From Candidatus Nanoarchaeia archaeon (GTDB taxonomy: Archaea; Nanobdellota; Nanobdellia; WJKC01): DNA of 64,000 nt. Positions 40,179 to 62,995 of the stretch are shown in pieces. The stretch lies in NCBI GenBank assembly GCA_041653515.1, contig JBAZFG010000002.1:125632-189631 (forward strand), written 5' to 3'. A model generated the notes under the pieces. That model was not told where the DNA came from and did no database searches. It saw only the letters and a list, made by a program, of their open reading frames with translations. The translations under genes and the position numbers were made by a program. How positions within the stretch are numbered: the stretch's first letter is position 1; each line of letters begins with the position of its first letter.

Positions 40179-40339
40179 GCCCCCGCAGTTTGGAATAAAC
40201 TTTTTTCAATAAGCAGGGGGATCAGGAAATGCCTAAAACTGAGGGGGATGTGCCCCCGCGGTTTGGAATAAACTTTTTTCAATAAGCAGGGGGATCAGGA
40301 AATGCCTAAAACTGAGGGGGATGTGCCCCCGCGGTTTGG
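40179..40339. repeat. tandem direct repeat, 73-bp unit x 2.2, GC-rich hairpin element
   Basis: Units 40179-40251 and 40252-40324 differ at one position (a/g); a third partial unit 40325-40339 ends at the aglB stop codon; the reverse complement matches the elements at 57371 and 62941. Confidence 0.85.
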
Positions 40340-42958
40340 TTACCAGGCAGGACTGCCGTTATCAACCCATGGCATCATTGCAGTATAATTAATGTGATAA
40401 ATATTAATGTTGGTTGGGTCGTATTGTGATATTAATCCTCTTATGTTTAGTGAGTTACTTGAGTAGACTAATTCAAAACCAGGTATTGTTTCGTTCAATA
40501 AGTATAAGTGAGTCATGAAACGATCATTTAAGTCTGATGGGATGTGAATTAAGCCTCCTTCAATGAATTCAATACAAGAGTCAATGCCGTTAGTCTCATT
40601 AAAGTAAGTGCAGCCATTACCATAATCACAAACGCAATTGTATGGGTGAAGCGTGTTACTGCCCGTAGCTAAGTTATAAACTACTGCTTGTGGCTGACCA
40701 AAAGATTGGTCTTCAGCCATTGGTATTAAAACGTTTACTATGTAACTCTCGCCTTTAGGGAATAATACACCATCAATGATTGTGTCAGCGCCAACATAAC
40801 CTGGTGAGGCTAAGTAATTGAAAACTAGTAGTGTGCTGAATTGTTCAGGATTATACAAGTTATTATCCACTTGCTGGCTGTAAGTGTAAGGTGCGTAATA
40901 ACCTGGCCTGCCACCAATATTAGCCATCTGAACATATTTTAGTATATCATCATCCATGACTAATAAATAATTAGGCCTATTGCCTGTTTCATTATTCTTG
41001 AAGTAATCAAGTGAGTCATAAACCTCTGTCATGTTAAAGCCGCTAAACATTTGGCCGCCAATAACTTCATCCCATACTACTTGGAAGTTACCCCCATCAA
41101 CTGTTGTTGCCCGCTCGCCCATGGTTTGAACCCAGTAACCATAATCCCACCAATGAGTGAATACAGCGTTAGTGTCAGTGTTATTCCTAACCCAACTCAT
41201 TGATTCGCCCCAATCATTAGTGAAGCTTGGAATCATTGTTGAAGCATCTTCAACAATAACATAGTAACTCCATATTACTAATAGTATTGCGACTGCGTAA
41301 ATAGCTGTTGAGTAAACTTTATCACTTGTTATTTTGCTGATTAAATTATTTATCCGCTCAATAGCGTAAGCAGCTAATAACACGAATATTGGGGTGCTAG
41401 CAAAGACAATTCTTATTGCGCCCCTAGTTGCAATAACACTTAAAGCAAACCATAAGATGATTATTAGTTTACTTGGCGTTAACTCACCCCACTTACTGCT
41501 CTTATGGAATTTAATGTAAAATAATATTACTGTTAAAGCCAATAATGGCAGTGTTAGTAAGTAAGTGTTCTCAAAGAATAAATTAATTGCTTCATAACCG
41601 TTTAAGTTAACGAATTTGCTAAACATGAAGAATAAGATGAACACAGTAAACATTATCACTACTGATGTGGCTTTCTTGCCAAACTTACCTAATACTTCTT
41701 GAACTAATAATGCTCCACCAATAACAAATAATGGCACAAACCATTGAAGCCTATGCCACCAGTCAACCCCGTTAGGGTCATAGAACCATGGGGCTTGGTT
41801 TTCAGTAACTGAGACGCAGAAAGCACAAGTGCCAAAAGGGTTTAGTATTGTATCAAGAGCGCCTTGTAGTTTGGCGCCAACATCAAATAATCCAGTTAAT
41901 TGCATTACTGGCAGACCAACCATTATTAATACTGCCATCATTATTACGAAATAAAAATTATCAGGCCACTTCTTGTTCTTGATTAAGTTACTGATGAATA
42001 AATCATAAACAATTTTTAATCCAAGCACTAACGCTGTGATAGTTGGTATTAAGAACATATCAATCATGATTAAACCAAAACCATTATAGCGCAGGGTCAT
42101 TGTAGCGTTCATTAATATTATTGGGATGAACCACGCAAAGTAAGTGATTACGTTTTTATTGCTTAATTTACCCATTAAAGCAAGGAATAGGAATGCTAAG
42201 CCAATGCTGAAGAATAAGAAGTTAGCCCCACCCCAAGTCAGGCTTGATAAGCCAGCTAATACGCCTGATATTAACCCGTAAATTAATGCTTGTTTAGTCT
42301 TATTTGCCCTAATTGATTTGACTAATGCATAAATCATGCTAAACCAAAAGACTGTTGCAAGCGCTTCCTTATCACTAAACCCTGCCATGGTCCTGAATAA
42401 ATATGATGGGATTAATGATAAAAACGCTGTGGCAATTAACGCTGTTTTCTTGTTGAATATTTCTTTAGTCATTAAGAAAAAGAATATCATGCTTATTACA
42501 AACGCAACAACTGGGTAAATCATTGAATAACTCATTAGTTCGCCGCCAAATAATGGGTGAAATATTGTGTATAATCCTGCAACAAAGTAAGACACTAATT
42601 GGTGCTCCTTGAAAGTGCTAAAACCTTCTGGAAAATAACGAAATGAATCCATTTCAGGCAGGGTGCCCTGCTCCACTAGTGTTTCAGTGTAGCGGTAAAA
42701 AACATACGGGTCAAGACCAAGCAATAAACCATTGTATAATGGTATGCTTAGCATCCTAACCCAAGCCCCAACTAATATAATACTAATTAATGCTGCGTAT
42801 AATATTATCTTCTTATTTTCTTTGAGGAATTTTACTGCTTCGCCAAAATTAAGTTCATCCTCATCAGTGGTTGCTGGTTTTTTCTCTTTCTTATCACTGC
42901 TAAACCAGCCTTTAATCTTTCGCCCTATCTCCCCGAAATCAATTTCTTCATCACTCAA
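40340..42958 (-). CDS. aglB: archaeal oligosaccharyltransferase AglB (STT3 family)
   Basis: 'FTHWWDYGYWVQTMG' canonical WWDYG motif; N-terminal 'GLDPYVFYRY' first-loop DxD-type motif; ~13 TM helices plus a C-terminal soluble domain. Confidence 0.85.
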   Translation of the reverse strand: MSDEEIDFGEIGRKIKGWFSSDKKEKKPATTDEDELNFGEAVKFLKENKKIILYAALISIILVGAWVRMLSIPLYNGLLLGLDPYVFYRYTETLVEQGTLPEMDSFRYFPEGFSTFKEHQLVSYFVAGLYTIFHPLFGGELMSYSMIYPVVAFVISMIFFFLMTKEIFNKKTALIATAFLSLIPSYLFRTMAGFSDKEALATVFWFSMIYALVKSIRANKTKQALIYGLISGVLAGLSSLTWGGANFLFFSIGLAFLFLALMGKLSNKNVITYFAWFIPIILMNATMTLRYNGFGLIMIDMFLIPTITALVLGLKIVYDLFISNLIKNKKWPDNFYFVIMMAVLIMVGLPVMQLTGLFDVGAKLQGALDTILNPFGTCAFCVSVTENQAPWFYDPNGVDWWHRLQWFVPLFVIGGALLVQEVLGKFGKKATSVVIMFTVFILFFMFSKFVNLNGYEAINLFFENTYLLTLPLLALTVILFYIKFHKSSKWGELTPSKLIIILWFALSVIATRGAIRIVFASTPIFVLLAAYAIERINNLISKITSDKVYSTAIYAVAILLVIWSYYVIVEDASTMIPSFTNDWGESMSWVRNNTDTNAVFTHWWDYGYWVQTMGERATTVDGGNFQVVWDEVIGGQMFSGFNMTEVYDSLDYFKNNETGNRPNYLLVMDDDILKYVQMANIGGRPGYYAPYTYSQQVDNNLYNPEQFSTLLVFNYLASPGYVGADTIIDGVLFPKGESYIVNVLIPMAEDQSFGQPQAVVYNLATGSNTLHPYNCVCDYGNGCTYFNETNGIDSCIEFIEGGLIHIPSDLNDRFMTHLYLLNETIPGFELVYSSNSLNIRGLISQYDPTNINIYHINYTAMMPWVDNGSPAW

Positions 42959-42965
42959 TTTAACA

Positions 42966-43784
42966 TCATACTCCTAATGAAATGTAAACCTCTAATAATC
43001 CCCCGATTATTAATACAATGCTTGCAAGCACTATTAAATCAATGGAATCAAGTAATACCTCTTTAAATTTATTACTCTTAGGGTCATGCCTTATTACTGC
43101 TGCACTAATAATGCCTCCTGCAATGCCTGCGAGGAAGTAAGCAATTAATTCTGGCAGACCATGAACTAAGTAACGACCAAACCCTAGTGGCACTGCCTGA
43201 AAATAAGAAGACCAATTACTAATATTGGTTTTAATTGCGTTGCCAATAGCGACGCCGAGCACGCTTGAGTTCCACGTGATAATAAATATTGCGCCCGCCC
43301 CGTATAATAAGCTAAATATTAAGCAGAAGAGTAATACTTTGAAGTTATTGGCTAATATTATTTTTAATAAATCTGTTTGCACTGCATTGCCTTGAATGGC
43401 TGATGAGTTAATGCTTCTGATAGTGTTTATTTGCTCTGAGAATATTTTTGCGTTAAGGCTGTCAGGCATTATGACATACCATGTGGTGAATGTTATTAAT
43501 AATCCCATTGACATGAAGAATATTACGCCGAGCACATCTTTATGATTGCCAATTAAGGGGTATTGTTTTTTGGTGAAATCCTCTGATTCCTCTCGTTTTA
43601 GCACGTTAACTAGTAATGGCACGCCAGCCATTGTTGTAAGAAAAACCATACTTAATGACGGGTCTGATGGGAATAACCACATGCTGACTACTAAGCCAAG
43701 GCTCGCGTATATCACGCCTAATATTGTCATTTTCCAAGGCTTGGCTCTAACTTCTTTACTGCTTAATATTGACTCAAAAACCAT
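42966..43784 (-). CDS. integral membrane protein (SpoIIM/DUF95-like)
   Basis: 272 aa, about six hydrophobic helices; no catalytic motif recognised. Confidence 0.35.
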   Translation of the reverse strand: MVFESILSSKEVRAKPWKMTILGVIYASLGLVVSMWLFPSDPSLSMVFLTTMAGVPLLVNVLKREESEDFTKKQYPLIGNHKDVLGVIFFMSMGLLITFTTWYVIMPDSLNAKIFSEQINTIRSINSSAIQGNAVQTDLLKIILANNFKVLLFCLIFSLLYGAGAIFIITWNSSVLGVAIGNAIKTNISNWSSYFQAVPLGFGRYLVHGLPELIAYFLAGIAGGIISAAVIRHDPKSNKFKEVLLDSIDLIVLASIVLIIGGLLEVYISLGV

Positions 43785-44838
43785 TAATCACCTCTAATTT
43801 TCGGCTCCTGCCTTGGAATCCTTCGCCAGTATCAGTTGCTTTGATTAGTCCTTGTTTTCTTAATCGGTTAATGTAGCGCCTAAAACTCCTAATGCTTAAT
43901 TCGCCATGTATCTCGCGGTAATTCTTGTAAGCATCGCCGCTAATAATATTAGGGTTCTCTTTTATGATGTTAATTATTTTTTCTTCATGGTCGCTTAATT
44001 CCTGAGGTAAGTTAATAGTTATTGTCTTAATTGCTTCTTCAACGTGCTTGACTGTTATTTTCCTGCTAGCATCCCGCTCAGCCCTGCGTCCAGCTTCTAA
44101 TAATAAGTTGATTGCTTTCCTAACATCTGTGCCTGAATTAATACTTACTTCATGGACTACTCCTTCGCTTACAACACTTGGGTGGAACGCTTGTTTGGCC
44201 CTGCGTTCAATAATGTTTTTCATCTCGCGCGTAGTGTATGGCTTGAACTCCATGTTATTAAGGTTTAATCGCGACATTAATCGTGGTTCAATATAATTCT
44301 TGTACTTAGGGTTGTTAGTGACCATTAAGATGCATACCCGTTCTAAGTTTAGTAATGAGTATATTATGTCAAGGTCTTTTATTTTATCCACTTCATCAAG
44401 GCAGACTACTGCTCCTTTTTCCCTTAGTTTTCTCATCGCGTTATTAAGTATTTCTTCGGTCGGCACACCTTTAGGGGGATAGAGCATGCCTAATCGTCGC
44501 GCTATCTCTAAAGCTATTGTGTGAGTGGTCTGGCTTTCCCAGCAATTAATGAATACTGGTACAATATCGCTGGTCTCTTTTAATTCGTTAAAAATATATT
44601 TGATGCTCGCTGTCTTGCCAAGCCCAGGCATGCCGTGGATGAATACATTACTCCCTAAGCGATTTTGTAATAATGGTTTGATGAAACTAGCTATTTCTTT
44701 AATCTCATTGTCCCGTTCAGGCATTTCTTCTGGTTGGAATTTATAATCGAGAATAGTTTCATCCTTGAACAAAGTCTCGTTGTCCATCAGGATATCTTTG
44801 AATAAGCCCCCCATAATAGTAAGGGACACGCTAATCAT
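43774..44838 (-). CDS. orc1: Orc1/Cdc6 replication initiator (AAA+)
   Basis: Walker A 'GMPGLGKTAS'; 'VCLDEVD' Walker B; C-terminal winged-helix region. Confidence 0.85.
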   Translation of the reverse strand: MISVSLTIMGGLFKDILMDNETLFKDETILDYKFQPEEMPERDNEIKEIASFIKPLLQNRLGSNVFIHGMPGLGKTASIKYIFNELKETSDIVPVFINCWESQTTHTIALEIARRLGMLYPPKGVPTEEILNNAMRKLREKGAVVCLDEVDKIKDLDIIYSLLNLERVCILMVTNNPKYKNYIEPRLMSRLNLNNMEFKPYTTREMKNIIERRAKQAFHPSVVSEGVVHEVSINSGTDVRKAINLLLEAGRRAERDASRKITVKHVEEAIKTITINLPQELSDHEEKIINIIKENPNIISGDAYKNYREIHGELSIRSFRRYINRLRKQGLIKATDTGEGFQGRSRKLEVINGF

Positions 44839-44892
44839 TATTAAAGGTTCCGATAATAAGTCTTAAATAATTGTTAAGCACAATAATTAATC

Positions 44893-45384
44893 ATGGCAAA
44901 GGAGTTTTCAGATAATTTAGGTGATAAAGCTAATGAGGATTATCAGCAAACACTTGAGATTATTTTTAGCTCAATTCTTGACCCATTGTTTGAGTTACAA
45001 AACGATGTTTTTGAGTTAAAGGGTTATGTGACTAATGTGCTGCCTGATTATATTAAAAAGTTAGTTACAACTGGTGTTGAAGAATTATACGTTAAAATAA
45101 TTGCATTCTTTAATGAGCGTGACCGAAAAATAAATGATTATTTTGACCAACAAAGAGGTCAGATTAATCAGCCAACTAATATTCCTGTTAATAGTTATGT
45201 TGTAGGTAACACTGCTATTGGTTTTAAGACGCTTGATGATTTAACCCCGCCACCGCCGCCTAAGAAGCTTGATCAATCATTTGAGAGTTCTATGTGTGAA
45301 GTAAAAAATAAACAGGATACTGTTCGTAAAAATATTATTGATGAATTAAAAGAATTGTTTACTAAGCGCGGCCCAATTGATTAA
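44893..45384 (+). CDS. hypothetical protein
   Basis: 163-aa ORF, acidic, 'PPPPPKK' linker; AT-rich. Confidence 0.4.
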   Translation: MAKEFSDNLGDKANEDYQQTLEIIFSSILDPLFELQNDVFELKGYVTNVLPDYIKKLVTTGVEELYVKIIAFFNERDRKINDYFDQQRGQINQPTNIPVNSYVVGNTAIGFKTLDDLTPPPPPKKLDQSFESSMCEVKNKQDTVRKNIIDELKELFTKRGPID

Positions 45385-45848
45385 TTTCTTAGTATATTAA
45401 CTGCTTTGATTGCTTTAATGAGCATTTTCTTGTTGACTGGTTTATTGCTTTTTAATGCGTTTTGTTGTTGTTTCCTATGCAATTCATTTATTGAGTAGCT
45501 TAGTATTACTTCAACACTTTTATCATAGTAACCGCTGGTTTTTAAGTAATAAGTGCCGTTTCCGAAATAAGTTATTCTAATATTATACTCATCGGTTTTA
45601 CTAAGCCCTACTGCTGTGAATGAATTCTTTGCTGGTGTCTTAATTGATTGATTAATCATCTGTTCTAACTGGCTGATTGATAACTCTTTTTGGTTAAGTG
45701 TTTTAAGGCTTTTTTCTTTAGCACTGATTAATTCAAGTGTTAACCCGCTTAGCCAGCCAATTGCAACGTATGTTTTTCCTGTTATTGCTTTGCTCATTTC
45801 TTGAGCAACGAATAACTCATCATCAAATTTTAGTGATGTGTACATCAT
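45381..45848 (-). CDS. hypothetical protein
   Basis: 155-aa ORF with no recognisable motif. Confidence 0.4.
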   Translation of the reverse strand: MMYTSLKFDDELFVAQEMSKAITGKTYVAIGWLSGLTLELISAKEKSLKTLNQKELSISQLEQMINQSIKTPAKNSFTAVGLSKTDEYNIRITYFGNGTYYLKTSGYYDKSVEVILSYSINELHRKQQQNALKSNKPVNKKMLIKAIKAVNILRN

Positions 45849-45877
45849 TAATTGTTTCTTTTTATTATCTTATATAC

Positions 45878-46393
45878 TTAATTGGTTGATTCAAATAAGT
45901 TGTTGAGTGTTTTGTAATCAATTATTAGGCTTTTTTTTAGCTGAAATTTTGTTGTGTTAATTAATTGTTCTTGGTTTAAGTCTTTGATTTTGTTTACTTT
46001 GATGATTACATCATCCTCGTTCTTGATTATTACTGAGTCAATAGTATTGTATTGGGTAAACGTATTAGTTCTTAACTCAAATTGTTTGTTCTTCTTAACT
46101 ATTTTAAGGAAACTAAAATAACCTTCATCAAATAAAGGTTCTTTCATTGAATCATTAATTATGTTGTTAAACTCATTTTTGTTAATAAATTTATATGGGT
46201 TAATTATTATTAATCTAACCTCATCTAATCTTAACATACCTATTAATTGCTCTCTTCTTCTTCCCATTAATGCTGCTAAATTGATTGGTCCATGGTTGAA
46301 ATCATACCAGTAGTTAGTAATTAATTTATGGTCATTGCTCTCTCTAATCTTATGATTAACATCTGGTTTTGGTTTGTATTGGCCATTATTCAT
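45878..46393 (-). CDS. hypothetical protein
   Basis: 171-aa ORF with no recognisable motif. Confidence 0.4.
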   Translation of the reverse strand: MNNGQYKPKPDVNHKIRESNDHKLITNYWYDFNHGPINLAALMGRRREQLIGMLRLDEVRLIIINPYKFINKNEFNNIINDSMKEPLFDEGYFSFLKIVKKNKQFELRTNTFTQYNTIDSVIIKNEDDVIIKVNKIKDLNQEQLINTTKFQLKKSLIIDYKTLNNLFESTN

Positions 46394-46444
46394 ATTCTTT
46401 ATTACCCATAATCTTTTTTATAACAATTACTGTCCTACAATCCC

Positions 46445-47440
46445 ATGGGTGTTAATATTCGCGATTTAGTTACGCCAGTTAGGACAGACCTTAAGTCTTT
46501 ATCTGGCTGTAAGATTGGGGTTGACGCTTTTAACTGGTTATACCAGTTTATCTCAACTATCCGCCAGCCTGACGGCACGCCGTTAATGGATTCTAAAGGC
46601 AGGGTGACTAGTCATTTAACTGGCTTATTTTATCGGGTGTTTAAGTTGCTTGAGTATGGGATTAAGCCTTGTTTTGTTTTTGACGGCAAAGCGCCTGATT
46701 TTAAGTTAGTGACTGCTGAGCGTGTTAAGCGTAAGGTTGAGGCTAAGCGTAAGTATGCGCAAGCGTTGGCTGAGGAGGATTTTGTTCGCGCCCGCAGTCT
46801 GGCAGGTCAGACGAGCCGATTAACTGGTGAAATGGTATCTCAGGCTAAGGAGTTAATCATTGCTATGGGCTTGCCTGTTATTCAGGCGCCAAGCGAGGGC
46901 GAGGCCCAGATTGCTTATATGACTAGTCAGGGTGATTTTTGGGCTAGTGCTAGTCAGGATTATGATACTTTGTTGTTTGGTAGTCCGCGGTTGGTTAAGA
47001 ATATTAATATTGTTGGCAAGAAGCGCTTGCCTCGTGGTGGTTTTGTTGAGGTTGTGCCTGAAGTGATTGAATTAAAATCATTACTTGAATCACTTGGCTT
47101 GTCCCGAGAGCAATTAATTCAGCTTGGCGTATTAGTTGGTACTGATTTTAATCCTGGCGGGGTTAAGGGTGTTGGGCCTAAGACTGCGCTTAAATTAGTC
47201 CGCGCTCATACTAATCCTTTTACGCAAGTTGATTGGGTATCCAGTATTAAACCTGAGTTTATTATTGATTTTTTCCTTCATCCACCAGTGATTAAGGATT
47301 ACAAACTGGTTTGGTCTGCGCCTGATTTTGATAAAGTTAAGTCAATCTTAACTTCATTTGAGTTTAGTGAGACAAGGATTGAGAATGTTTTTAAGAAATT
47401 CCGTGAGTCAGGTCAATCACAATTAAATAAGTGGTTTTAG
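46445..47440 (+). CDS. fen1: flap endonuclease FEN-1
   Basis: 'MGVNIRDLV...CKIGVDAFNWLYQF...KPCFVFDGKAP' N-domain; 'GTDFNPGGVKGVGPKTALKL' H3TH motif. Confidence 0.85.
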   Translation: MGVNIRDLVTPVRTDLKSLSGCKIGVDAFNWLYQFISTIRQPDGTPLMDSKGRVTSHLTGLFYRVFKLLEYGIKPCFVFDGKAPDFKLVTAERVKRKVEAKRKYAQALAEEDFVRARSLAGQTSRLTGEMVSQAKELIIAMGLPVIQAPSEGEAQIAYMTSQGDFWASASQDYDTLLFGSPRLVKNINIVGKKRLPRGGFVEVVPEVIELKSLLESLGLSREQLIQLGVLVGTDFNPGGVKGVGPKTALKLVRAHTNPFTQVDWVSSIKPEFIIDFFLHPPVIKDYKLVWSAPDFDKVKSILTSFEFSETRIENVFKKFRESGQSQLNKWF

Positions 47441-48112
47441 TTATTTTCTTTTTTTCTTGAAAAAACTCTTAGCAGGTCCTTCCTTGATCGCCCAGCCAAA
47501 ACCAATGCCAATAGCAAGGCTAATACCAAGACTAACCCCTAATACAATATACTTAAAAGTGTCTTCGAGTAAGCTTGTGTTAGTTAGGCCGAATTTTGGT
47601 AAAGCCATTACCACTGCAAAGAATAATATAATGCCATAAACAATTTCTGCTATTGTCTCGTTGAATGGTATTGCGTTGCTCTTGATTTTCTTGCGCACGA
47701 AGTCAGCAAATACCATTGCAATAATTATTATTCCTGCCCCAACGCTTACTTCTGGTATTGCTCTTATTATGCCGTCAAATAATTCTGCCAAGAAAGTTAG
47801 GCTGGTCCTGACAGCTGCTTCTTTGAGGAATATAATGATAATGTAATACTTAACTATTAAGCTGACCGCATTAGTTACTGATATATTATAGAGTGATTCT
47901 TTTAGTTTCATTTTTTTTAGCCATTCATCAATTTGTGAGGCAGTCATTAATTTCTTGATTATTACTTCACTTATTTTTGCCACAACCCAACCGAGTAGTA
48001 ATATTAGTAATGCAGTGATTATTTTTGGCAAAGCTAGTATTAATGCTGTGGCTGATTCTTGTAATGCTTGAGCTGGTAATTCAACAATATTTAGTAAAGT
48101 ATCATTAACCAT
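47441..48112 (-). CDS. integral membrane protein
   Basis: Multi-TM; the likely start is the internal 'MVNDTLLNIV' rather than the upstream extension that overlaps the next gene. Confidence 0.4.
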   Translation of the reverse strand: MVNDTLLNIVELPAQALQESATALILALPKIITALLILLLGWVVAKISEVIIKKLMTASQIDEWLKKMKLKESLYNISVTNAVSLIVKYYIIIIFLKEAAVRTSLTFLAELFDGIIRAIPEVSVGAGIIIIAMVFADFVRKKIKSNAIPFNETIAEIVYGIILFFAVVMALPKFGLTNTSLLEDTFKYIVLGVSLGISLAIGIGFGWAIKEGPAKSFFKKKRK

Positions 48113-48170
48113 TATTCTTGTCTTAATGACCGTTAATTTTAAAACGTTTACTAATACTATTATTATTTGT

Positions 48171-48443
48171 ATGGAGCTTGATTCACAGTTAGAAAAAGAG
48201 TACGCGCGCACTGTTTTCGCGTTTAAAGAGTTATCAGTGACTGACTCACAGCAAGCGCGTGAATTATATGAGCTGGTTAAATCTTATTATGATGACGCGC
48301 TTCACTTTTACAATAAGGGCTTGAAATTAGAATCTTTTGAGTTATTCGCTTATGTTTGGGGTTTGCTTGACGCTGGCGCCAGGCTTGGTTTGTTTGACCC
48401 TGGTGCTGCGCGCCAGCACTATAAGATAGAGCAACATATTTAA
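48171..48443 (+). CDS. conserved hypothetical protein
   Basis: ORF from 'MELDSQLEKEY...'. Confidence 0.3.
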   Translation: MELDSQLEKEYARTVFAFKELSVTDSQQARELYELVKSYYDDALHFYNKGLKLESFELFAYVWGLLDAGARLGLFDPGAARQHYKIEQHI

Positions 48444-48469
48444 ACCATTAATCTTTCTTTTTTCTTTTA

Positions 48470-48634
48470 ATGGTAAAGCATTGTGTTTCTTGTGGTAAGG
48501 ATGTTAGCACTATCAATAATAGTGTTGTTTTTGATTGCCCTAAGTGCGGTAAGGGTAAGATTGTTCGTTGTGGTAAGTGTCGCAGGTTAGGGATTAGTTA
48601 CTCGTGTGTTGAATGCGGGTTTAAGGGGTTGTGA
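48470..48634 (+). CDS. Zn-ribbon protein (COG2888-like) upstream of aEF-1beta
   Basis: 54 aa, 'CVSCG..18..CPKCG..7..CGKCRR..9..CVECG' (four CxxC pairs); the stop overlaps the start of the next gene. Confidence 0.45.
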   Translation: MVKHCVSCGKDVSTINNSVVFDCPKCGKGKIVRCGKCRRLGISYSCVECGFKGL

Positions 48635-48910
48635 TTGTTTATGCCAAATAAAGTTATTATGACTGTTAGAGTAATGCCTGAGGGGCTTGAAGTTAATCTT
48701 GATGAATTAAAACAAGCTATTACTAATGCTTTAAAGGGCGTGGCTGAACCTGGTATTACAATTAAGAAGGAGCCGATTGCTTTTGGTCTTAATGCGCTTG
48801 ATGTTACGTTCGTGACTGATGAGGTTACTGGTTCTAGTATTATTGATGATAAATTAGCTGTTTTGTCAGGGGTTCAAACTGCTAGTTTATCCAGTGTTAG
48901 TTTGTTTTAG
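48635..48910 (+). CDS. translation elongation factor aEF-1 beta
   Basis: 'VIMTVRVMPEGLEVNLDELK...EPIAFGLNALDVTFV' matches the archaeal EF-1beta pattern. Confidence 0.75.
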   Translation: MFMPNKVIMTVRVMPEGLEVNLDELKQAITNALKGVAEPGITIKKEPIAFGLNALDVTFVTDEVTGSSIIDDKLAVLSGVQTASLSSVSLF

Positions 48911-49274: not shown

Positions 49275-49294
49275 AATCCTTATATGCGCATCCT

Positions 49295-50197: not shown

Positions 50198-50204
50198 TAA
50201 TTCA

Positions 50205-50217
50205 TTTTTTTTTTTTT
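50205..50217 (+). terminator. 13-nt oligo-T tract (archaeal-type terminator), followed by a TATA-like 'TTTATAAGG'
   Basis: T13 run just 3' of the R15P isomerase stop; ~45 nt upstream of the AMP phosphorylase start. Confidence 0.4.
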
Positions 50218-50260
50218 ATAAGGGTAATATCTTTAAATCCTGATATGTTAAGAAACATTA

Positions 50261-52025: not shown

Positions 52026-52132
52026 TTACTAAAATTTATAAATAATAAAGTCTATTATTATTTTTTATGAAAACTAAATGTGATTGTCTCTGGCAATGAT
52101 TTAGTTAGTCTTACTCTTAGTGGTGTTTTCTT

Positions 52133-53534: not shown

Positions 53535-53556
53535 ACTCCTTAAATAAATTCTTATT

Positions 53557-55597: not shown

Positions 55598-55621
55598 ATA
55601 ATTGATTTAGCATTTTTTTGT

Positions 55622-56797
55622 TTAAGTAATTAGTCTTTCCCTGATTTTAGTGACTTCGTTTCTTAGTTTTTCTTCATTAATGCCCAATAAGTTCTTGCCA
55701 TCACGAACAATTTCTTTTCCTTTTAAGTAAACGCTTTTGATTGCGTTCTTATTCATTATTTTAGCTACAAATTCACTAACTGTCTTAAATGGTTTTAATT
55801 GGCTCATATCAATTAGTGAGAAACTAGCTTCGCTTTCTGGCCCGAATGGCTCATGAGTCATAGTGTATGCTTGATTAATTGTTACGCCAGTGAGCTCGTA
55901 GGACTCCCATGCTTCATTTAATATTGATGATGATGGGTTCCAAGCGTAACTGTCAGTGCCTAGTAACATTTTAACATTATTATTAAGCATTACTTTGTTT
56001 GGCGGCGCGTTATCACTAATCGCTTTATTGCTCGTCGGGCAGTGCATTACTTGAACGTTATTTTCAGCTAACATTAATATGTCCTTGCTGTCAGCGTAAG
56101 TGCAATGAGCTAACCTTAAGTCATGCTCAAGCATTCCAAGACTATTCAAGTAATCAATTGTTCTCATGCCAGTTAATTTCTTTATATGCTTAACATCCTC
56201 AAGTGTCTCGCATGCGTGCATGTGAATTGGCAGGTCATTTTCCTGTGCAAACAATAATCCTTCTTTTATTAATTGTGGTGTGCATTCATACTCGTTAGCT
56301 AAGCCTAACATTATTTTATTGCCGTACTTCTTTTTTAATTCAAGCGTTTGGTTGAATTGTTTGCTAATACTGCTTTTCTCTTTATGAGCATCCTTGACTG
56401 CAAGGCAAGCAGTGTAACCTAACTTGCATTTATTAATTGCTTTAATTACTGGCTCAGGGTTCATGTCCATGGTGTCAACATGAGTCACGCCTTCCTTGAT
56501 TGATTCAAGGCAGGCTAACAGTGATGCTTTGTAAACATCAATTGTTTTGCGCCTGTCATGAACCTTAAAACCAATATTATCAAAATACTCATATTTTTTC
56601 AAGCCAAGCGCAGCCCCACTCACTGCTCGACTACCAAGGTGAACGTGAGCGTTAGTTAATCCTGGCAGTAAGAATAAGCCAGTGCAATCAACGCCTTTAC
56701 TCAGGTTGTTCTTAATGTAATGAACTGATTGGTCAAAGAATATGTCTGTCTTGATTAACCGACCACCTTTCAGAATAGTGATATTATTGAGTATCAT
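55622..56797 (-). CDS. amidohydrolase (MTA/SAH-deaminase or cytosine/guanine-deaminase-like)
   Basis: 'LPGLTNAHVHL' HxH metal site; 'HMHACE' and 'GTDSYAWN' later motifs. Confidence 0.65.
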   Translation of the reverse strand: MILNNITILKGGRLIKTDIFFDQSVHYIKNNLSKGVDCTGLFLLPGLTNAHVHLGSRAVSGAALGLKKYEYFDNIGFKVHDRRKTIDVYKASLLACLESIKEGVTHVDTMDMNPEPVIKAINKCKLGYTACLAVKDAHKEKSSISKQFNQTLELKKKYGNKIMLGLANEYECTPQLIKEGLLFAQENDLPIHMHACETLEDVKHIKKLTGMRTIDYLNSLGMLEHDLRLAHCTYADSKDILMLAENNVQVMHCPTSNKAISDNAPPNKVMLNNNVKMLLGTDSYAWNPSSSILNEAWESYELTGVTINQAYTMTHEPFGPESEASFSLIDMSQLKPFKTVSEFVAKIMNKNAIKSVYLKGKEIVRDGKNLLGINEEKLRNEVTKIRERLIT

Positions 56798-56823
56798 TGA
56801 TTAATCTTTAAGTATTTTAATGC

Positions 56824-57300
56824 TTAAATAATATATTTCTCAAACAAGTTGCCTGGTCCTTTACTTGTTTTATAAAGCGTGTGTTTTTTTAGCCAATTAA
56901 TTAAGTTCATAGTTTTCTTATTATTAGTTAAGTGCAAGCCCCATGTTGATGGGTCACAAATGTATTCTTCTTCTTGATAAGTAAATTTATTCCAAACGTG
57001 ACTTAATGGTTCATTAAAGAACTCATTTGTAAGTAAGTAATTTCTGCCTTCAATGATTTTATTGTAAGCTTTACCCATTATCATAATTGTTTTAAATTGT
57101 TTATTCTCTGATAAGACGTTGTTTAGGAATTGTGCGAAGTGATTGCATAAACCTCCTTTATTTATGAATTCATTAGTGGTGGTTTCCCAATTATTTGGCG
57201 CGCAATAAGGGATATTAGCAATCGTTTCTTCAAGAAATAATTCTAATTCCTTTATGTTATTTATTTTTTTATGATAAGTGTTGTCAATTATATCATTCAT
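56824..57300 (-). CDS. transglutaminase-like cysteine peptidase domain protein
   Basis: Putative Cys-His-Asp triad in order: 'GGLCNHFAQF', 'SHVWNKF', 'ICDPSTW'. Confidence 0.4.
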   Translation of the reverse strand: MNDIIDNTYHKKINNIKELELFLEETIANIPYCAPNNWETTTNEFINKGGLCNHFAQFLNNVLSENKQFKTIMIMGKAYNKIIEGRNYLLTNEFFNEPLSHVWNKFTYQEEEYICDPSTWGLHLTNNKKTMNLINWLKKHTLYKTSKGPGNLFEKYII

Positions 57301-57336
57301 GTTAAATTAACTTTTTTTTAGTATTTTTAAAGTTTT

Positions 57337-57488
57337 TTAGAAATCACTGAGTTTTTTCTGCTTAGTCCCTAACCGCAGGGAGGGGTGACCCCTCCCTTCA
57401 GTTTTAGGGTAATCCTGATTCCCACCCCCCTACGATTGTAATTATGCCAGAGACATGTTAGAAATCACTGAGTTTTTTCTGCTTAGTC
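57337..57488. repeat. GC-rich hairpin element (57371-57430) bracketed by a perfect 31-bp direct repeat (57337-57367 / 57458-57488)
   Basis: 'ttagaaatcactgagttttttctgcttagtc' occurs twice; the second copy is the last 10 codons plus stop of nucS; between them lies 'aaccgcagggaggggtgacccctcccttcagttttagggtaatcctgattcccacc'. Confidence 0.8.
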
Positions 57489-58210
57489 TTATCAACTATG
57501 TTCCTGTTTGGTGGTTCTACTTGGCAGAACTTAAAGCTCCAGTCATGGAGCATTTGTTCAGCGTTCTTAGTGATGCCTGGCGCTGCGATGTAACCAATGA
57601 CTTTGTCAATTCCTTTAGCTGCCTTGATTCTCTCAACGTAGCGCCTTAGTTGTTGGACCGCGCTAAGCCCGGCAGTCACTCGCTTACACTCAATAATTAT
57701 TAATGCTCCTTCACCATCATGGCCCATCACGTCAATAAAACCATATTTTGTTTGTTCTTCAAGGCTGACTGGCCTAAAGTCAATGCTAATAATATGTGGG
57801 TGCTCATAAATCATGCGCGCCATGTCAGCTTCACTGCCCATAATCATTACTTCTTCATCATCGCTTAGTTGGCCTGAGATTAGTAAGTCAATGCTGGTTA
57901 TTTTAATGACCATTTGTTCTCTTGGGTTGATTGATTCAGCAGTGATGAATAATGAGTCGCCAGCTTCAACCCTGATGCTCGCGCCTTCTTTTATCCAGTT
58001 AACTGGGTTCCTGCCTGTTGGTTTGTGAACTAATAGTGTTTTGTCTGTTTTGATGGTGACTGCCCTGCCGCCCCGCTCGAGCTTTGAGTAAGCCCTGCCT
58101 TCATACTTAACCTCGCACTCGCAGTAAAGTGTGATTAACTCGTTTCGCTTGAGTGCTTGGTCTAATACGTTCTTGGTTGTATCAAAATCAGGTTTAACAT
58201 AATTGCTCAT
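57458..58210 (-). CDS. nucS: endonuclease NucS/EndoMS
   Basis: C-terminal RecB-like nuclease motif 'GFIDVMGHDGEGALIIIECKR'; N-terminal dimerisation/ssDNA-binding-like region. Confidence 0.7.
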   Translation of the reverse strand: MSNYVKPDFDTTKNVLDQALKRNELITLYCECEVKYEGRAYSKLERGGRAVTIKTDKTLLVHKPTGRNPVNWIKEGASIRVEAGDSLFITAESINPREQMVIKITSIDLLISGQLSDDEEVMIMGSEADMARMIYEHPHIISIDFRPVSLEEQTKYGFIDVMGHDGEGALIIIECKRVTAGLSAVQQLRRYVERIKAAKGIDKVIGYIAAPGITKNAEQMLHDWSFKFCQVEPPNRNIVDKTKQKKLSDF

Positions 58211-58263
58211 CTAATTCTTTATCTCGATACACATATAAATTGATTTTGTTATCTTTATTATTC

Positions 58264-58647
58264 ATGGAAGTTATTGTTGACATTTTTGATCCTAGCAAAC
58301 AGGAGTTCATTATTGGTGACCGTAGATTACCAAGCTACTTTGTTGGTAATGTAATTGGTCATTTAAAGGGTTATAAATTGTTAGGGGATGATAGTGTCCA
58401 GCAGATGCTTCCGTTACTTAATGAAATTGAATTAAATATGTATAAAACGCTTGATGATAAAACTACTCAATTAAGATTCTTGGCTTCTAAGCTGGTTGAG
58501 AAATTAACTTTTTTTGGCTCATATGACGAGCGAGTTATTATCTTAGAGGATTTCATTAACTCTGAATGTGATATGTATGTTAAGAAATTAAGGATTGATG
58601 ACCAGACTAAGAAAGAGTTAAAGCGCTTAATGGCTCTTACTCGATAA
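58264..58647 (+). CDS. hypothetical protein
   Basis: ORF taken from 'MEVIVDIF'; no motif recognised. Confidence 0.3.
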   Translation: MEVIVDIFDPSKQEFIIGDRRLPSYFVGNVIGHLKGYKLLGDDSVQQMLPLLNEIELNMYKTLDDKTTQLRFLASKLVEKLTFFGSYDERVIILEDFINSECDMYVKKLRIDDQTKKELKRLMALTR

Positions 58648-61456
58648 GTATTCCTGGTTTGCATGGCATTGCTTTCGGGTTATCTGCTTTGACTACATCA
58701 ACTTCTGTGTTATACTCTTGTTCAAGGAATTTGATTGCTTCGTTTAGTGATTGGTACTCACCATTCCTGTCTGGCGCGCTTAATGGCACGCGGCTTGGGT
58801 TCCTGATTAATGACTGGATGATGCCTGTCGCGTCCTTGGCGTGAGCTTTGACTGAAGCGTTCTTTAAGGCATTAGTAATTAATTCTTTTAAGTCATGCTT
58901 GTTCTTTGACTTAACCACTGATTTGTATAAGTCATACTTCCATTGGTCAGCGATGAATAATGTTATCTTTTTTGGTTTTGTTTTTATTATGCTTAATAAA
59001 CCATTAATGTCCTTGATTGTGTTCATTATTATTGATTCGTTCTGCTCAATTGATTGGTTAATCATTGATTCATTGATTTTTGGGAATCGGGCTAGTGAGA
59101 CAAACCCTTTGTTAATTTTGCTCCAAGCCTCCTCGCAGATGTGGGGTATTAATGGCTCGAGTGCTATCAGCCAGTCAGCTAGGAAAGTCCTGATTACACT
59201 ATTAAATTGTTGCGCGCTCACTCTTTTCTTGTAGTAGTTAAGCTCGTTCATGAACTCAAAGAAAATGTTAATTGCGTAAGGCCTAATCATGATATTACAT
59301 CCCTGCTCGTAAGCTTCTTTTATTCTTGAGTAAAAACGGCTGGTAATCCACTTGTCGATGCTGGTTAATTTCTTGGCTGGCAGCGCTTTACTTGCTGTCA
59401 GCACTAGATTAGCAAAATTAGTTATTTTTGTTTTGACGCTGGCAACCTCGTTCTCGCGCCAGTCAACTACTGAGTCAATGTCGCTTGAGCTTAATAAGAA
59501 CATTCTTAGTAAGTCAGCGCTGTACTTTTCAGCTACTTCAGCTAATGGTATAACGTTGCCTTTGCTCTTACTCATCTTAACCCCTTCGCGGATGACCATT
59601 TCGTTGAAACTTATTTCTTTTGGCCAGTACTTTTTGGGGAATATCTTGGTGTGGTGGAATAAGAAGAATGTTAGGTGGTTGCTGATGTGTGCTGGCGCAG
59701 TGTGGCGGTGGTCAAGTGGGTACCAATAAGTGAAATCTTCACGCATCTCACGCGCCCATTTAACTTTAAACTCACCTTTACCTAGGAATACATAATCAAA
59801 TAATTCAGGGGTTAATTGTTCTGGTTTTATTTTCTCGCGGTGAATAATGTTAATGATTGTGTAAAATGCCATGTAAATCGTTGAGTCGCTTAAGCTTTCA
59901 ATAACCCACTTGTCATCATAAGGCAGTTTTGTGCCTAAGCCTCTTTTGCGCGCGCAAGGTCTTTTCTCAAGCCAGTCAACCGTGTCAATGAATGACTTGC
60001 GGTACTTGTCAGGTATTATTGTCATATCATTAATTAATCTTCTAGTCTTGTCTTTCCATTCTTTGCTTGTGTAATCAAGGAACCATTGATCGTTAAGCAC
60101 TGCCACTATTACCTTGCCAGTGCAACGGCACTCAGCTTTGCGGCTGGTCTCGTAGAATGTGAAAGCGTCGCCTTGGCTTATTAGTTTGTTCCTGACACGG
60201 TCTTTAATTTCATTTATCTTGAGTCCTTTGAATTCAGCGCACTTTTCATTAAGCACTCCTTTGTAGAATTCATCTTTGTAAACCCTCTTGGTTGCTTGTT
60301 CTATTAGTTCCTTGTTGCGTTGGTTTTTAACGCCTAATTTGTTAATCATTTCAACTGCAGGTTCATTGCTGTAACCCTCAATGTTAATGATTGTTATTGG
60401 CTTAATTGACTTGATTTCCTTACTGTCAAGCCCGTAATCAGTTATGCCCTTGCTATCATTTTGCAAGTCTCTTAATGCTGCGTAATCAAACGGTGCGTGG
60501 GCTGGCACTGAGTAAACAATGCCTGTGGCCACGTCTGGGTCAACGAACTGACCTGGAAGTATTGGTACTTCAGTTCCTAATGGGGTGGTGACGTGTTTGC
60601 CTATTAGCTCTGTGCCAGCTAGTTCCCTTGTTTTCTTTAATCCTGTTTGCTGGTATTTTAATTTGTTGAATGCTTCAACGCTTATGATTAAGTTATTATT
60701 AGTCTCAACGTACAATGATTCAGGGTTAACCCATAAGTTAGTAATGCCATAAATTGTTTCAGGCCTTAGTGTACCTGCTACTAATTGTTTGCTGCCTAAA
60801 TCGAATTTGATTGCAGTGAACTCATTAATGCTTACTTTATCAGCGTCACCATCCTTAATATCATCCTCGCCAACAGCGTTGTCACAGTTAACACAGAAAT
60901 TAATTGGGTAACTACCCTGGGTTAATGCTTTGCCTTGTTTTAGTTTTTTAAACTGCCATTCAATAAATTTATTGTACTCTTTGTCGCCAGTGGTGAATTG
61001 TCTTGTCCAATCAACGCTGACCCCAATACTCTCAAAGTCTTGTCTGATAACGCTGGCGAAGTGCTTGGCAACGTTCATTGGTTCCTTGAATGACTCAATT
61101 ATCTTCTTGACTTTACTTTCATCTTTTTCTCTTAAGCGGACGTAATTAGTGAATAACTCGATGTAATTCTTATCACCTTTCCTTATGCGGTCGCTGATAG
61201 CTAATATTGGCGTGCCTGAGATGTGATAAGCCATGGGCCATAAGACATTATAACCTTGCTTTCGCTTGAAGCGCGCAATGAAGTCGCCGATACTGTAAGT
61301 CCTGCCGTGGCCAATATGGTAAGGGCCACTGGTATATGGGTATGGTACTGTGAAGAAATACTTCTTGCCTGTTTTTTTGGGCTCAAAGATTTTATCCTTA
61401 ACCCATTGCTTCTGCCACTTACGCTCTATTTTAGATAAATCCATCTTGTTAATCAC
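58637..61456 (-). CDS. leuS: leucyl-tRNA synthetase (archaeal type)
   Basis: 'PYPYTSGPYHIGHGRTY' HIGH; 'KMSKSKGNV' KMSKS; 939 aa with a CP1 editing-domain insertion. Confidence 0.9.
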   Translation of the reverse strand: MINKMDLSKIERKWQKQWVKDKIFEPKKTGKKYFFTVPYPYTSGPYHIGHGRTYSIGDFIARFKRKQGYNVLWPMAYHISGTPILAISDRIRKGDKNYIELFTNYVRLREKDESKVKKIIESFKEPMNVAKHFASVIRQDFESIGVSVDWTRQFTTGDKEYNKFIEWQFKKLKQGKALTQGSYPINFCVNCDNAVGEDDIKDGDADKVSINEFTAIKFDLGSKQLVAGTLRPETIYGITNLWVNPESLYVETNNNLIISVEAFNKLKYQQTGLKKTRELAGTELIGKHVTTPLGTEVPILPGQFVDPDVATGIVYSVPAHAPFDYAALRDLQNDSKGITDYGLDSKEIKSIKPITIINIEGYSNEPAVEMINKLGVKNQRNKELIEQATKRVYKDEFYKGVLNEKCAEFKGLKINEIKDRVRNKLISQGDAFTFYETSRKAECRCTGKVIVAVLNDQWFLDYTSKEWKDKTRRLINDMTIIPDKYRKSFIDTVDWLEKRPCARKRGLGTKLPYDDKWVIESLSDSTIYMAFYTIINIIHREKIKPEQLTPELFDYVFLGKGEFKVKWAREMREDFTYWYPLDHRHTAPAHISNHLTFFLFHHTKIFPKKYWPKEISFNEMVIREGVKMSKSKGNVIPLAEVAEKYSADLLRMFLLSSSDIDSVVDWRENEVASVKTKITNFANLVLTASKALPAKKLTSIDKWITSRFYSRIKEAYEQGCNIMIRPYAINIFFEFMNELNYYKKRVSAQQFNSVIRTFLADWLIALEPLIPHICEEAWSKINKGFVSLARFPKINESMINQSIEQNESIIMNTIKDINGLLSIIKTKPKKITLFIADQWKYDLYKSVVKSKNKHDLKELITNALKNASVKAHAKDATGIIQSLIRNPSRVPLSAPDRNGEYQSLNEAIKFLEQEYNTEVDVVKADNPKAMPCKPGILIE

Positions 61457-61545
61457 TTATTAACTCCTCTTTTTTTAACGTTGCGTAATTATTATCGCAT
61501 TATTTTTTTAAGATTTTTCCCAAGAAGACTTTAAATAATCCTAAT

Positions 61546-62748
61546 GTGTGTTCATTATTCATGCGCAATAATCTTAATAATTTCTTTGTTGAGCGCGTGA
61601 AGCACTTTAAGCACATGGCTTCATTATCCAATACTTTTTTCTTTTACTTGTTCGCCTGGGGTCTAGTCACGCCAATATTTAATATTCATATTAATGAAGT
61701 GACTAATTCACTTTTCTTGTCCGGCATTATCTTTTCTGTGTTTGGTTTTGCTAGAATATTTTTTGACCCGTCAATCGGTTTGTTATGCGACCGCGTTAAC
61801 CCTAAGAGATTATTGCAGGGTAGTCTATTGTCTTATACATTAATATTTTTCTTATACACGATTGCTAATAATTTTTATTTATTATTAATCGTGCGAGTAT
61901 TGCACGCAATTGCTTGTGCCATGCTCTGGATTTCTGGTTGGACTTTAGTTAGATTAAAGAGTAAAGGTAATTCTGCTCAGGAAGAGATTAGTGTTTGGTA
62001 CTCAGTTCAGTACATTGCTTATGTTATTGCTCCTTTAATTGGTGGCTCGTTGATAACAATGTTTTCGTGGCAACCTGTTTATTACTTAGCGTCAATAACT
62101 GCTTTTATTGCTTTTGTTTACGCTTCAATTAATGTTAAGAGTGTTCATACAAGTAATAATAGTAAGAAGCGGTTTAGGGATTTATGGCACCAGTTCTTCA
62201 TAAATAAATCATCATCAATTAGGCTAGTATTATTAACATTCCTTGAAATATTAATCGTGATTGGTTTCTATGAGTTCATGCCATTATTATTAGATCAGGC
62301 TGGGCTTAATATTGAGGAGATTAGCGTTGTGTTTGCTTTGGCTTATACTACCCCATTTATTTTATTCCCAGTAATTATTGGAGTTATTAGTGATAAGTAT
62401 GGTCGCAAAATACCAACTGCTATTGGTTTGATAATCATTAGCTTTGGGTTATTATTGTTCTGCAACGCCAGTACTTTTACTCAATTCCTGTTTTATACTT
62501 TCATTATTGTTACTGGTGATGCGTTTGTTAACTTAAGTTTTAACGCAGAGCTTAATGATATGACACCAAAAAACAGTGCTGGTGGTTTTACTGGTATTTT
62601 TGAGATGATTAAGGATTTGGCTGTGGCCATCGGCCCGTTGTTAGTTGGTGTTTTAAGTGCTGTAACTAATATTTCATTTGCTTTTATAATAATGAGTGTG
62701 ATGTCATTAGGCACTATATTAGTGCTTAAAGGGTTTAAGAATTTCTAA
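61546..62748 (+). CDS. MFS transporter
   Basis: About 12 TM helices; 'DRVNPKR' loop 2-3 motif region. Confidence 0.6.
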   Translation: MCSLFMRNNLNNFFVERVKHFKHMASLSNTFFFYLFAWGLVTPIFNIHINEVTNSLFLSGIIFSVFGFARIFFDPSIGLLCDRVNPKRLLQGSLLSYTLIFFLYTIANNFYLLLIVRVLHAIACAMLWISGWTLVRLKSKGNSAQEEISVWYSVQYIAYVIAPLIGGSLITMFSWQPVYYLASITAFIAFVYASINVKSVHTSNNSKKRFRDLWHQFFINKSSSIRLVLLTFLEILIVIGFYEFMPLLLDQAGLNIEEISVVFALAYTTPFILFPVIIGVISDKYGRKIPTAIGLIIISFGLLLFCNASTFTQFLFYTFIIVTGDAFVNLSFNAELNDMTPKNSAGGFTGIFEMIKDLAVAIGPLLVGVLSAVTNISFAFIIMSVMSLGTILVLKGFKNF

Positions 62749-62791
62749 AAGCAAGCCTTAAAAAGTAATTAATTCTTTTCTAAATATTAGT

Positions 62792-62935
62792 GGGCCCGTA
62801 GCGCAGTTTGGATAGCGCGACAGGCTTCTACACTCGACGCTTCGCGTCTCGTTCCGTCCTTCGGACGGCCGCTCGCTTAAAACGAGCGGGGGTGAGGATA
62901 CCTGTAGGTCGTGGGTTCAAATCCCTCCGGGCTCG
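62792..62935 (+). tRNA. tRNA-Arg(TCT) with 69-nt intron at canonical position 37/38
   Basis: Acceptor GGGCCCG/CGGGCTC, D-stem GCGC/GCGC, anticodon stem ACAGG/CCTGT separated by 'CTTCTA'+intron+'A'; T-loop TTCAAAT; one T-stem mismatch; the intron carries two hairpins (ccgtcc-ttc-ggacgg; gctcg-cttaaaa-cgagc). Confidence 0.7.
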
Positions 62936-62940
62936 CACGA

Positions 62941-62995
62941 AAACCGCAGGGAGGGGAGACCCCTCCCTTCAGTTCATCTCCTGATTCCCACCTCC
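62941..62995 (+). repeat. GC-rich hairpin element, copy immediately 3' of tRNA-Arg
   Basis: 'aaccgcagggaggggagacccctcccttcagtt...cctgattcccacc' is nearly identical to 57371-57430; 9-bp stem agggagggg/cccctccct. Confidence 0.8.

Follow-up and report, generated by a model that had tools for sequence, protein, structure and literature searches.

The window analysed here is a 64 000-nucleotide stretch of DNA from a Candidatus Nanoarchaeia archaeon, covering positions 125632–189631 of contig 2 in a 36-contig, 1.115-Mb assembly (approx. 36% G+C, 97% complete). It holds four copies of a short element with a hairpin stem and a TCAGTT/CCTGAT box. These lie at three loci: beside a NucS/EndoMS gene (57368–57457, + strand), past a tRNA gene (62939–63053, + strand) and, as a tandem array, past an STT3/AglB gene (40178–40339, − strand). 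An initial annotation had described the four copies as a stem of variable length with preserved pairing, followed by a conserved box. It placed the copies at aglB and the tRNA gene in sense orientation immediately downstream of these genes, and interpreted the family as a structured RNA or terminator module, with a mobile element as the alternative. The copies, their positions and their motifs are confirmed, and the alternative is now favoured on the basis of flanking duplications, empty sites in sister species and near-identical copies. The family is probably a short, non-autonomous and structure-defined form of mobile DNA, which inserts at gene boundaries and, by duplicating long stretches of target, leaves the genes intact. 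Three features had not been described in the initial annotation: a 31/31 repeat around the copy at 57368, a degenerate tRNA 3′ end at 63054–63077, and a C-run that co-varies with the stem.

Element copies at three loci of the window

The NucS/EndoMS gene (57458–58210, − strand) encodes NucS_N and NucS_C domains. Its working 3′ end forms the right-hand member of a direct repeat (57458–57488, + strand coordinates), the stop codon TAA (57458–57460) being the first triplet of that repeat. The left-hand member (57337–57367), identical at 31 of 31 positions, contains the displaced last 10 NucS codons and stop, read as TKQKKLSDF* on the − strand. Copy 1 of the element (57368–57457, + strand; nhmmer E 2.3e-13) occupies the space between. 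Its parts are ACCGC (57373–57377), the purine strand AGGGAGGGG (57377–57385), a loop (57386–57388), the pyrimidine strand (57389–57397), TCAGTT (57398–57403), CCTGAT (57414–57419), a third strand TCCCACCCCC from 57420, and a tail (57431–57457).

The tRNA gene (62792–62935, + strand; Rfam RF00005, 49.7 bits) has an insertion of approximately 71 nt at the anticodon loop. The working copy of its duplicated 3′ end lies at 62915–62938 (+ strand). Copy 2 of the element (62939–63053, + strand; E 9.9e-11) begins 4 nt past the end of the tRNA. ACCGC (62943–62947) is followed by AGGGAGGGG (62948–62956) and CCCCTCCCT (62960–62968), then by TCAGTT (62969–62974), CCTGAT (62980–62985), the third strand TCCCACCTCC (62986–62995) and a long tail (62996–63053). 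The displaced and degenerate tRNA 3′ end, GTCCAATTTACTCCGGGCTCACAC, comes next (63054–63077, + strand; 77% over 30 nt). Judged by eye, the tRNA is probably an arginine tRNA with anticodon UCU. ARAGORN reported no tRNA in the window, so this intron-bearing gene was missed. A gene for an MFS transporter is located at 61546–62745 (+ strand).

Copies 3 and 4 (− strand) make up an array of 2.2 tandem 73-nt units that are 99% identical, with full units at 40339–40267 and 40266–40194 and a 16-nt partial third at 40193–40178. The array directly follows the stop codon TAA (40340–40342) of the AglB gene (40343–42958, − strand), as had been proposed. It ends ahead of the start, at 40141, of a GT4 glycosyltransferase gene on the same strand (39125–40141). 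The flanks of the array contain no recognisable target repeat.

Both defining motifs are far in excess of chance in the window. Two instances of AGGGAGGGG and two of its complement (57377–57397 and 62948–62968) make four matches where 0.08 are expected. TCAGTT..CCTGAT also gives four matches, at 40221–40242 (−), 40294–40315 (−), 57398–57419 (+) and 62969–62985 (+), against 0.17 expected. Stem length is 9 bp in both + copies and 5 bp (GGGGG/CCCCC) in both − copies. An nhmmer profile built from element copies finds 12 copies at nine loci in the whole genome (per-copy E ≤ 8.5e-9) and nothing else convincing; partial element ends are absent from the remainder of the genome.

Anatomy of the family and three-way co-variation

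Throughout the family a core of about 58 nt is accompanied by an optional tail. A lead of 4–6 nt (YCCGA, YCCAA or AGACA) precedes the invariant ACCGC. A purine-rich run, a loop of 3–5 nt and a complementary pyrimidine run then form stem P1. The box that had been noted as conserved is invariant across the family: TCAGTT, 5–13 variable nt and CCTGAT, in which TCAG and CTGA may pair as P2. The resulting linker hairpin is conserved and spans 22–26 nt. CCTGAT is followed by a second pyrimidine run and then by nothing, by a few bases, or by a tail of up to approximately 200 nt. In family f12, the tail opens with a third hairpin that also co-varies (GGTGGCATC/GATGCCAC, GGCGCCATC/GATGGCGC and GGATTGC/GCAATCC). 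There are no terminal inverted repeats, as the two ends, YCCGAACCGC and the C-run or variable tail, are not complementary. No T5 run follows the hairpin on either strand, where the invariant sequences are TCAGTT and TGCGGTT, respectively. One contig of a metagenome-assembled genome (MAG) labelled Micrarchaeota (JAGGVH010000049.1, L033, approx. 2330–2560) carries beside a normal copy a second one with hairpin-rich insertions of about 51 and 55 nt. These are placed exactly in the P1 and P2 loops, which suggests that the loops tolerate expansion.

Co-variation was measured over 111 distinct copies. The P1 pairs comprise GC 534, AT 133, CG 69, TA 4 and TG 1, that is, a single wobble among 741 stem pairs. 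At the variable stem levels 5–8, 321 Watson–Crick pairs are present, compared with a shuffle mean of 170 and maximum of 198; the variation with pairing kept that had been described for the window is a property of the family. Stem variants include GGGGGG/CCCCCC, GGGGGC/GCCCCC, GGAACC/GGTTCC, GGGAAAC/GTTTCCC and AGGGAGGGG/CCCCTCCCT. A:C oppositions at the closing level number 11.

The second pyrimidine run mirrors the 3′ strand of the stem and is parallel-complementary to the purine strand. Three positions had been left free in the scan pattern, namely the R following ACCGC, the Y preceding TCAGT and the Y following CCTGAT. These read A/T/T in 65 copies, G/C/C in 29, A/C/C in eight and other combinations in two. 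Aligned in parallel with the whole purine run, the third strand has T for A or C for G at 630 of 678 positions. For an internal A, the partner is T in 44 of 65 cases in the parallel register versus 15 of 65 in the antiparallel one, and 2000 shuffles of third strands among copies gave a mean of 12 and a maximum of 25. Levels 1, 4, 5 and 6 alternate between A-T.T and G-C.C triples. Examples of purine run and third strand are AGGGGGAGG/TCCCCCTCC, GGGGGAGG/CCCCCTCC, AGGGGAA/TCCCCTT and AGGGAAAC/TCCCTT. Where the 5′ strand becomes C near the loop (levels 6–8), the third strand no longer tracks it.

Such a mirror repeat is the signature of a major-groove triplex, as neither templated copying nor Watson–Crick pairing can yield it. 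The prediction of an intrastrand triple helix, beyond a plain hairpin, is therefore well supported at the level of sequence. The triplex itself may form most plausibly in single-stranded DNA (ssDNA). On the strand described above, the triples would be C+.G-C and T.A-T (pyrimidine motif), with the TCAG/CTGA hairpin serving as the linker; G.G-C and A.A-T triples (purine motif) would form instead on the G-rich complementary strand. Single-stranded DNA of the G-rich strand is favoured as the likely folding molecule because wobbles are nearly absent, because the closing-level A:C oppositions become G.T on that strand, and because neutral pH destabilises consecutive C+ triples. Single-sequence folding gives unremarkable z-scores (+0.3 to −1.6). 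The underlying energy models score hairpins rather than triplexes, and these scores are uninformative, since runs of G and C still fold after shuffling. If the triplex is real, the family provides a clean natural case of three-way co-variation for a G/C-rich major-groove triplex, its more than 100 variants forming a built-in mutational series.

Distribution and insertion at gene termini

In the host's class, six of 401 sampled genomes are positive. They belong to two families and comprise the window's genome and five of the 17 genomes of one other family; the element was not found in the three genomes of the window's own family. Reversed-pattern controls gave zero matches in the 401 genomes. 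Two GenBank MAGs labelled Candidatus Micrarchaeota carry four and seven copies, several of which are identical within a genome. A tighter pattern scanned over metagenome contigs returned at least 124 matches on at least 120 contigs, at least 122 of them clearly the same element; the G+C content of these contigs ranges from 29 to 61%. The 2.9 million viral contigs searched gave no match. An earlier, looser pattern run over genome contigs had produced about 118 chance matches and two real ones among the matches listed, and yields no distribution beyond the searched class. The hosts are referred to here as ‘Micrarchaeota-type’ DPANN, a label taken solely from the two labelled MAGs. Limited full-text literature searches turned up no earlier account of such an element in Micrarchaeota or DPANN. 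The family thus appears to be previously undescribed and widespread in tiny DPANN archaea.

Flanking sequence was sufficient for a repeat survey in 126 copies. About 50 of these (approx. 40%) are enclosed by direct repeats of their flanking sequence. Among the 48 distinct repeat pairs, which span 13–64 nt with a median of 26.5, identity is complete in 18 and reaches 90% or more in 40. The commonest end point of the left copy is 4 nt before ACCGC, which defines a precise end, whereas the end on the tail side is variable. Tandem arrangements of repeat-element-repeat-element-repeat occur at two loci of the window's genome, and on other contigs a tRNA gene is succeeded by 58-nt copies placed back to back. 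Copies within a genome can be near-identical. On contig 4 of the window's genome (G000, 64573–64610; L002/L020), the second and third copies of a 27-nt repeat are separated by a 38-nt piece (CAAAC...AAAAAAC), beside a normal element. The piece may be a gutted copy or a different small insert at the same site.

Empty sites are provided by related species. A gene of 470 amino acids has the element past its stop codon in genomes G014 and G147, and runs uninterrupted into the next gene in G111 and G240, which share a genus with G147. Relatives of the window's NucS gene within the family also lack the element. Four independent assemblies contain one filled locus in identical form, and the architecture is therefore no assembly artefact. 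Strain-level empty alleles were sought by exact-protein look-ups, which returned only filled alleles. Orientation relative to flanking genes is random, with counts of 33, 22, 22 and 22 in the left/right strand classes. Over the nine loci, orientation bears no relation to local GC or AT skew.

The duplicated targets are start codons, stop codons or tRNA 3′ ends. In the largest group, a gene on the opposite strand abuts the tail side of the element with its 3′ end. The codon content of the repeat copies was compared from an explicit table of all frames. A stop codon stands at the same offset in the working and displaced copies in 19 of 27 rows; for 13 of the 19, no more than 4 nt separate it from the repeat end nearest the element. 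The tRNA group contains several repeats that are tRNA 3′ ends, finishing at or near the mature end. A polarity is apparent, with the gene body on the tail side at about 28 loci and on the ACCGC side at about five; the AglB and tRNA loci of the window belong to the minority.

Seven loci constitute a 5′-end group, and in all seven a start codon opens both repeat copies. It is ATG in both copies at six loci; at L217 the upstream copy has GTG. The repeats begin 0–9 nt ahead of the start codon, and at three of the loci the upstream regions are AT-rich and leaderless-looking. The upstream copy opens a mini open reading frame (ORF) of 27–42 codons whose frame continues across the element to a stop located between −10 and +29 relative to the real start. 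The tails carry GAGGTGAT, GGAGG or GAGG, usually a few bases ahead of the real start, resembling a Shine–Dalgarno sequence. Read-through of the mini-ORF and the Shine–Dalgarno-like tail would together maintain expression of the gene. If so, these insertions offer a testable case of a leaderless gene turned into a leadered, re-initiation-dependent one.

Where the repeat holds a gene 3′ end, its two copies differ by 38 synonymous and nine non-synonymous codon changes, or by 38 and six when two rows explained by another gene are set aside. Ratios at single loci are 8:0, 7:0, 5:1 and 5:0. In G014, for instance, the copies encode MIISILRGKG* and MIVSILRGKG*, with seven of nine nucleotide differences at third positions; the orthologues in G111 and G240, two members of one genus, differ to a similar extent across the same codons. 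Filled alleles may pass between related species, in which case recombination through the repeat would leave one donor-derived and one resident copy. Identical gene ends are used in different genera (L008/L142 and L141/L167), which fits allele transfer and equally fits a target preference. Other possible accounts of the synonymous bias are selection acting via gene conversion between the copies or via frequent repeat-mediated excision.

Insertion route and competing explanations

The proposed insertion step would leave 13–64 nt of target on both sides, with one copy joined to the intact gene and the other to the neighbouring sequence. Insertion may be carried out by host replication or recombination, or by an unseen trans-acting enzyme. 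Candidate routes are a trans-acting integrase, host recombination acting on excised element-plus-repeat units and, as a speculative third, incorporation at replication of a structure-protected ssDNA flap. Selection for intact genes explains why surviving insertions span a gene boundary.

Several observations weigh against non-autonomous mobile DNA of this kind. Domains RVT_1 (reverse transcriptase), Cas1, TnpB zinc ribbon and Y1_Tnp are absent from the 97%-complete genome, the DDE families lying outside this search. Terminal inverted repeats are lacking, and we know of no transposase whose duplications approach the present ones in length and variability. About half of the copies have no recognisable flanking repeat. 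The agreement of repeat boundaries with start and stop codons is closer than would be expected if selection kept genes intact; because selection sets only a one-sided limit, it does not account for a match to the terminus at the level of single bases. Nor is the synonymous bias expected from simple decay of a duplicated target, as neutral decay would give mostly non-synonymous changes. The instability of C+.G-C triple runs at neutral pH also counts here, the in vivo triplex being putative. Finally, a mobiliser is not supplied by the genome's one tyrosine recombinase, which was rejected since it does not track the element: a 59%-identical copy is present in an element-free relative, and f12 hosts have only distant ones. 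The locus of this recombinase (G000 contig 10, 26.7–30.2 kb; L007) encodes a 389-aa protein whose C-terminus bears a zinc ribbon, with a HerA/FtsK-like ATPase fragment next to it. A cytosine-methyltransferase-like sequence is a further neighbour, and the locus may be an integrated element.

A version of this mobility that involves no dedicated transposase is put forward tentatively. The triplex-hairpin in ssDNA would resist flap or nuclease processing, and host enzymes would build it in beside a patch copied from the end of a gene or RNA. Excised element-plus-repeat units would then re-enter the orthologous gene ends of related species by homologous recombination. Such a route would jointly explain the 13–64 nt duplications, the single precise end, the boundaries at starts, stops and tRNA ends, and the polarity with respect to the gene body. 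Repeats differing synonymously would follow from re-entry at orthologous ends. If correct, transposase-free insertion would represent a new class of mobility in archaea.

The structured-RNA interpretation of the initial annotation stands only in part. Structure is upheld by strong co-variation in both P1 and the third strand, whereas the role as a 3′-UTR terminator or stabiliser is contradicted. It is unlikely that the family consists of cis-acting or stand-alone structured RNAs (stabilisers, terminators or small non-coding RNAs), whose triple helix would protect transcripts and whose spread would be a by-product. The co-varying third hairpin of f12 and the hairpin-rich expansions confined to the two loops are what structured RNAs display. 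Many copies lie directly past a stop codon on either strand, and the 11 closing-level A:C oppositions would be G.U on the opposite strand. Against this, random orientation is the very outcome that the initial annotation had named as refuting a 3′-UTR function, three copies in the window's genome lie inside 5′ gene ends, and an oligo-T tract is missing. One wobble in 741 pairs is unusual for an RNA stem, and flanking duplications and empty sites are left unexplained. Searched with Rfam 15 (gathering thresholds and E ≤ 10), the window contains only the tRNA, the best score on the element being E approximately 1 and at most 16 bits. The lengths and locations of the repeats have a different precedent in integrase-mediated site-specific integration, which would make the repeats att sites and the element a conserved arm or solo remnant of larger integrative plasmids or viruses that substitute their own version of a gene end. 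Repeats of 13–64 nt at tRNA 3′ ends and protein-gene ends with genes intact, a copy beside the element that differs synonymously in the manner of element-borne replacement ends, the gene ends shared between genera, and tandem accretion past a tRNA are all consistent with such scars. This origin is nonetheless quite improbable: the targets number at least 40 and have no common sequence, no locus has cargo between its repeats, no pair of copies brackets an integrase, viral contigs are without matches, and the sole tyrosine recombinase in the genome does not track the element.

Retro-type or template-switch insertion would join the element to copies of RNA ends, namely the 5′ ends of leaderless mRNAs and the 3′ ends of tRNAs, with variable duplications like those of short interspersed nuclear elements. 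The precise ACCGC end opposite a variable one, the variable duplication length, the coincidence of repeat boundaries with mature tRNA 3′ ends and with the probable transcription starts of genes that look leaderless, and the placement of the gene body on the tail side are all in keeping with this process. It is considered very unlikely given that the genome has no reverse transcriptase, that stop codons are not known RNA ends, and that a poly(A) or other 3′ tail signature is missing. Chance similarity or an assembly artefact might be suspected, as the genome and most related sequences are metagenome assemblies. This explanation is counted as refuted by identical architecture in the independent JGI, ENA, Logan and GenBank assemblies; motif counts far above those of shuffled sequence and the empty reversed-pattern controls also speak against it. 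Three narrower ideas were also discarded. An archaeal bulge-helix-bulge intron does not fit, since inspection of junctions and folds revealed no such motif and the flanks are direct repeats rather than complementary. The hammerhead-like CUGAU..GAAA lacks the GA and stem II. For a diversity-generating retroelement, there is no reverse transcriptase and no A-bias, the repeat differences being third-position changes of all kinds.

Mobile DNA inserted at gene boundaries, the favoured reading, can be compared with several known systems. The closest structural relatives are the enterobacterial PIT/TM(ECO) repeats (Hoyne 2000; Holder et al. 2015), which fold in vitro, have no promoter or terminator activity and mark variable loci (PMC4666352). 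Their consensus is CCCTCNCCC-N3-6-GGGNGAGGG-N3-GGGNGAGGG (PMC4666352). Both families are short, dispersed, intergenic hairpins with a mirrored third run, multi-copy, on either strand and sometimes in tandem. A homopurine-strand hairpin accompanied by a run mirroring the pyrimidine strand, by which PIT/TM repeats are recognised, is also predicted from the sequences of the present family. The differences are that the TM third strand is on the other side with a 3-nt linker, whereas here the linker is a hairpin of 22–26 nt and ACCGC, TCAGTT and CCTGAT are added. The present hosts are archaea, and long terminus duplications are not reported for TM motifs.

MITEs (miniature inverted-repeat transposable elements), REP/BIME, Correia and Rickettsia RPE sequences are likewise tens to about 100 nt long, structured, multi-copy and near-identical, and depend on something in trans. 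RPEs are also similarly tolerated between genes or in-frame inside them. The present family departs from MITEs in having no terminal inverted repeats, a variable duplication of 13–64 nt instead of a fixed one of 2–10 nt, no related transposase in the genome (TnpB, Y1 and reverse transcriptase were covered, with DDE outside the search), and insertion at gene termini. Site-specific integrative elements, such as phage 21 and e14 in icd and archaeal elements in tRNA genes, carry replacement gene ends. They share with the present family direct repeats of tens of nucleotides at tRNA or protein-gene ends, an intact gene and mainly synonymous differences; here, by contrast, the inserts are 58–150 nt, gene-free, without an associated integrase and at dozens of unrelated targets. 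Casposons and Cas1-mediated CRISPR-spacer integration make a long staggered duplication of about CRISPR-repeat size, use tRNA or gene 3′ ends and yield tandem target-insert-target structures. The present genome differs in its lack of Cas1, and the element in its lack of terminal inverted repeats and in a duplication that is not ruler-like (14–15 bp would be expected). Tycowski and colleagues reportedly described ENE-type RNA triple helices in the transcripts of transposable elements and in long non-coding RNAs (MALAT1, PAN). ENEs form U.A-U triples with a 3′ A-rich tract. A major-groove triple helix on mobile-element sequence is the shared feature, predicted in the present case; the predicted triples here differ in being G/C-rich and fully internal.

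No transposon superfamily known to us shows this combination: one end precise and the other ragged, duplications that are long and of variable size, insertion in both orientations, and no enzyme. The most fitting place for the element is among small non-autonomous structured repeats, with an unexplained and possibly new mode of insertion at gene termini. Terminus-anchored long duplications, with no transposase found, offer a lead to an integrase of a new kind or to an insertion pathway driven by the host. Mobile DNA is commonly regarded as scarce in very small DPANN genomes; these would then carry an actively spreading element that spares genes. For the annotation of MAGs, duplicated termini yield false short ORFs and apparent gene-end repeats.

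Some contigs extend the range of arrangements. At L155 (7790–8130, − strand) and L161 (8350–8570, + strand), back-to-back 58-nt copies without spacers stand directly past a tRNA gene or gene stop. These arrays are followed by a related module with inverted-repeat ends (AAACC.../...GGTTT), which may be a sister family or a palindromic derivative. At L264, a metagenome contig, a reverse-strand frame is open across the element into the second repeat copy (IPATPLLF...IPATPLLFS*). The element may be translated in-frame there; alternatively, the repeat is a tRNA end.

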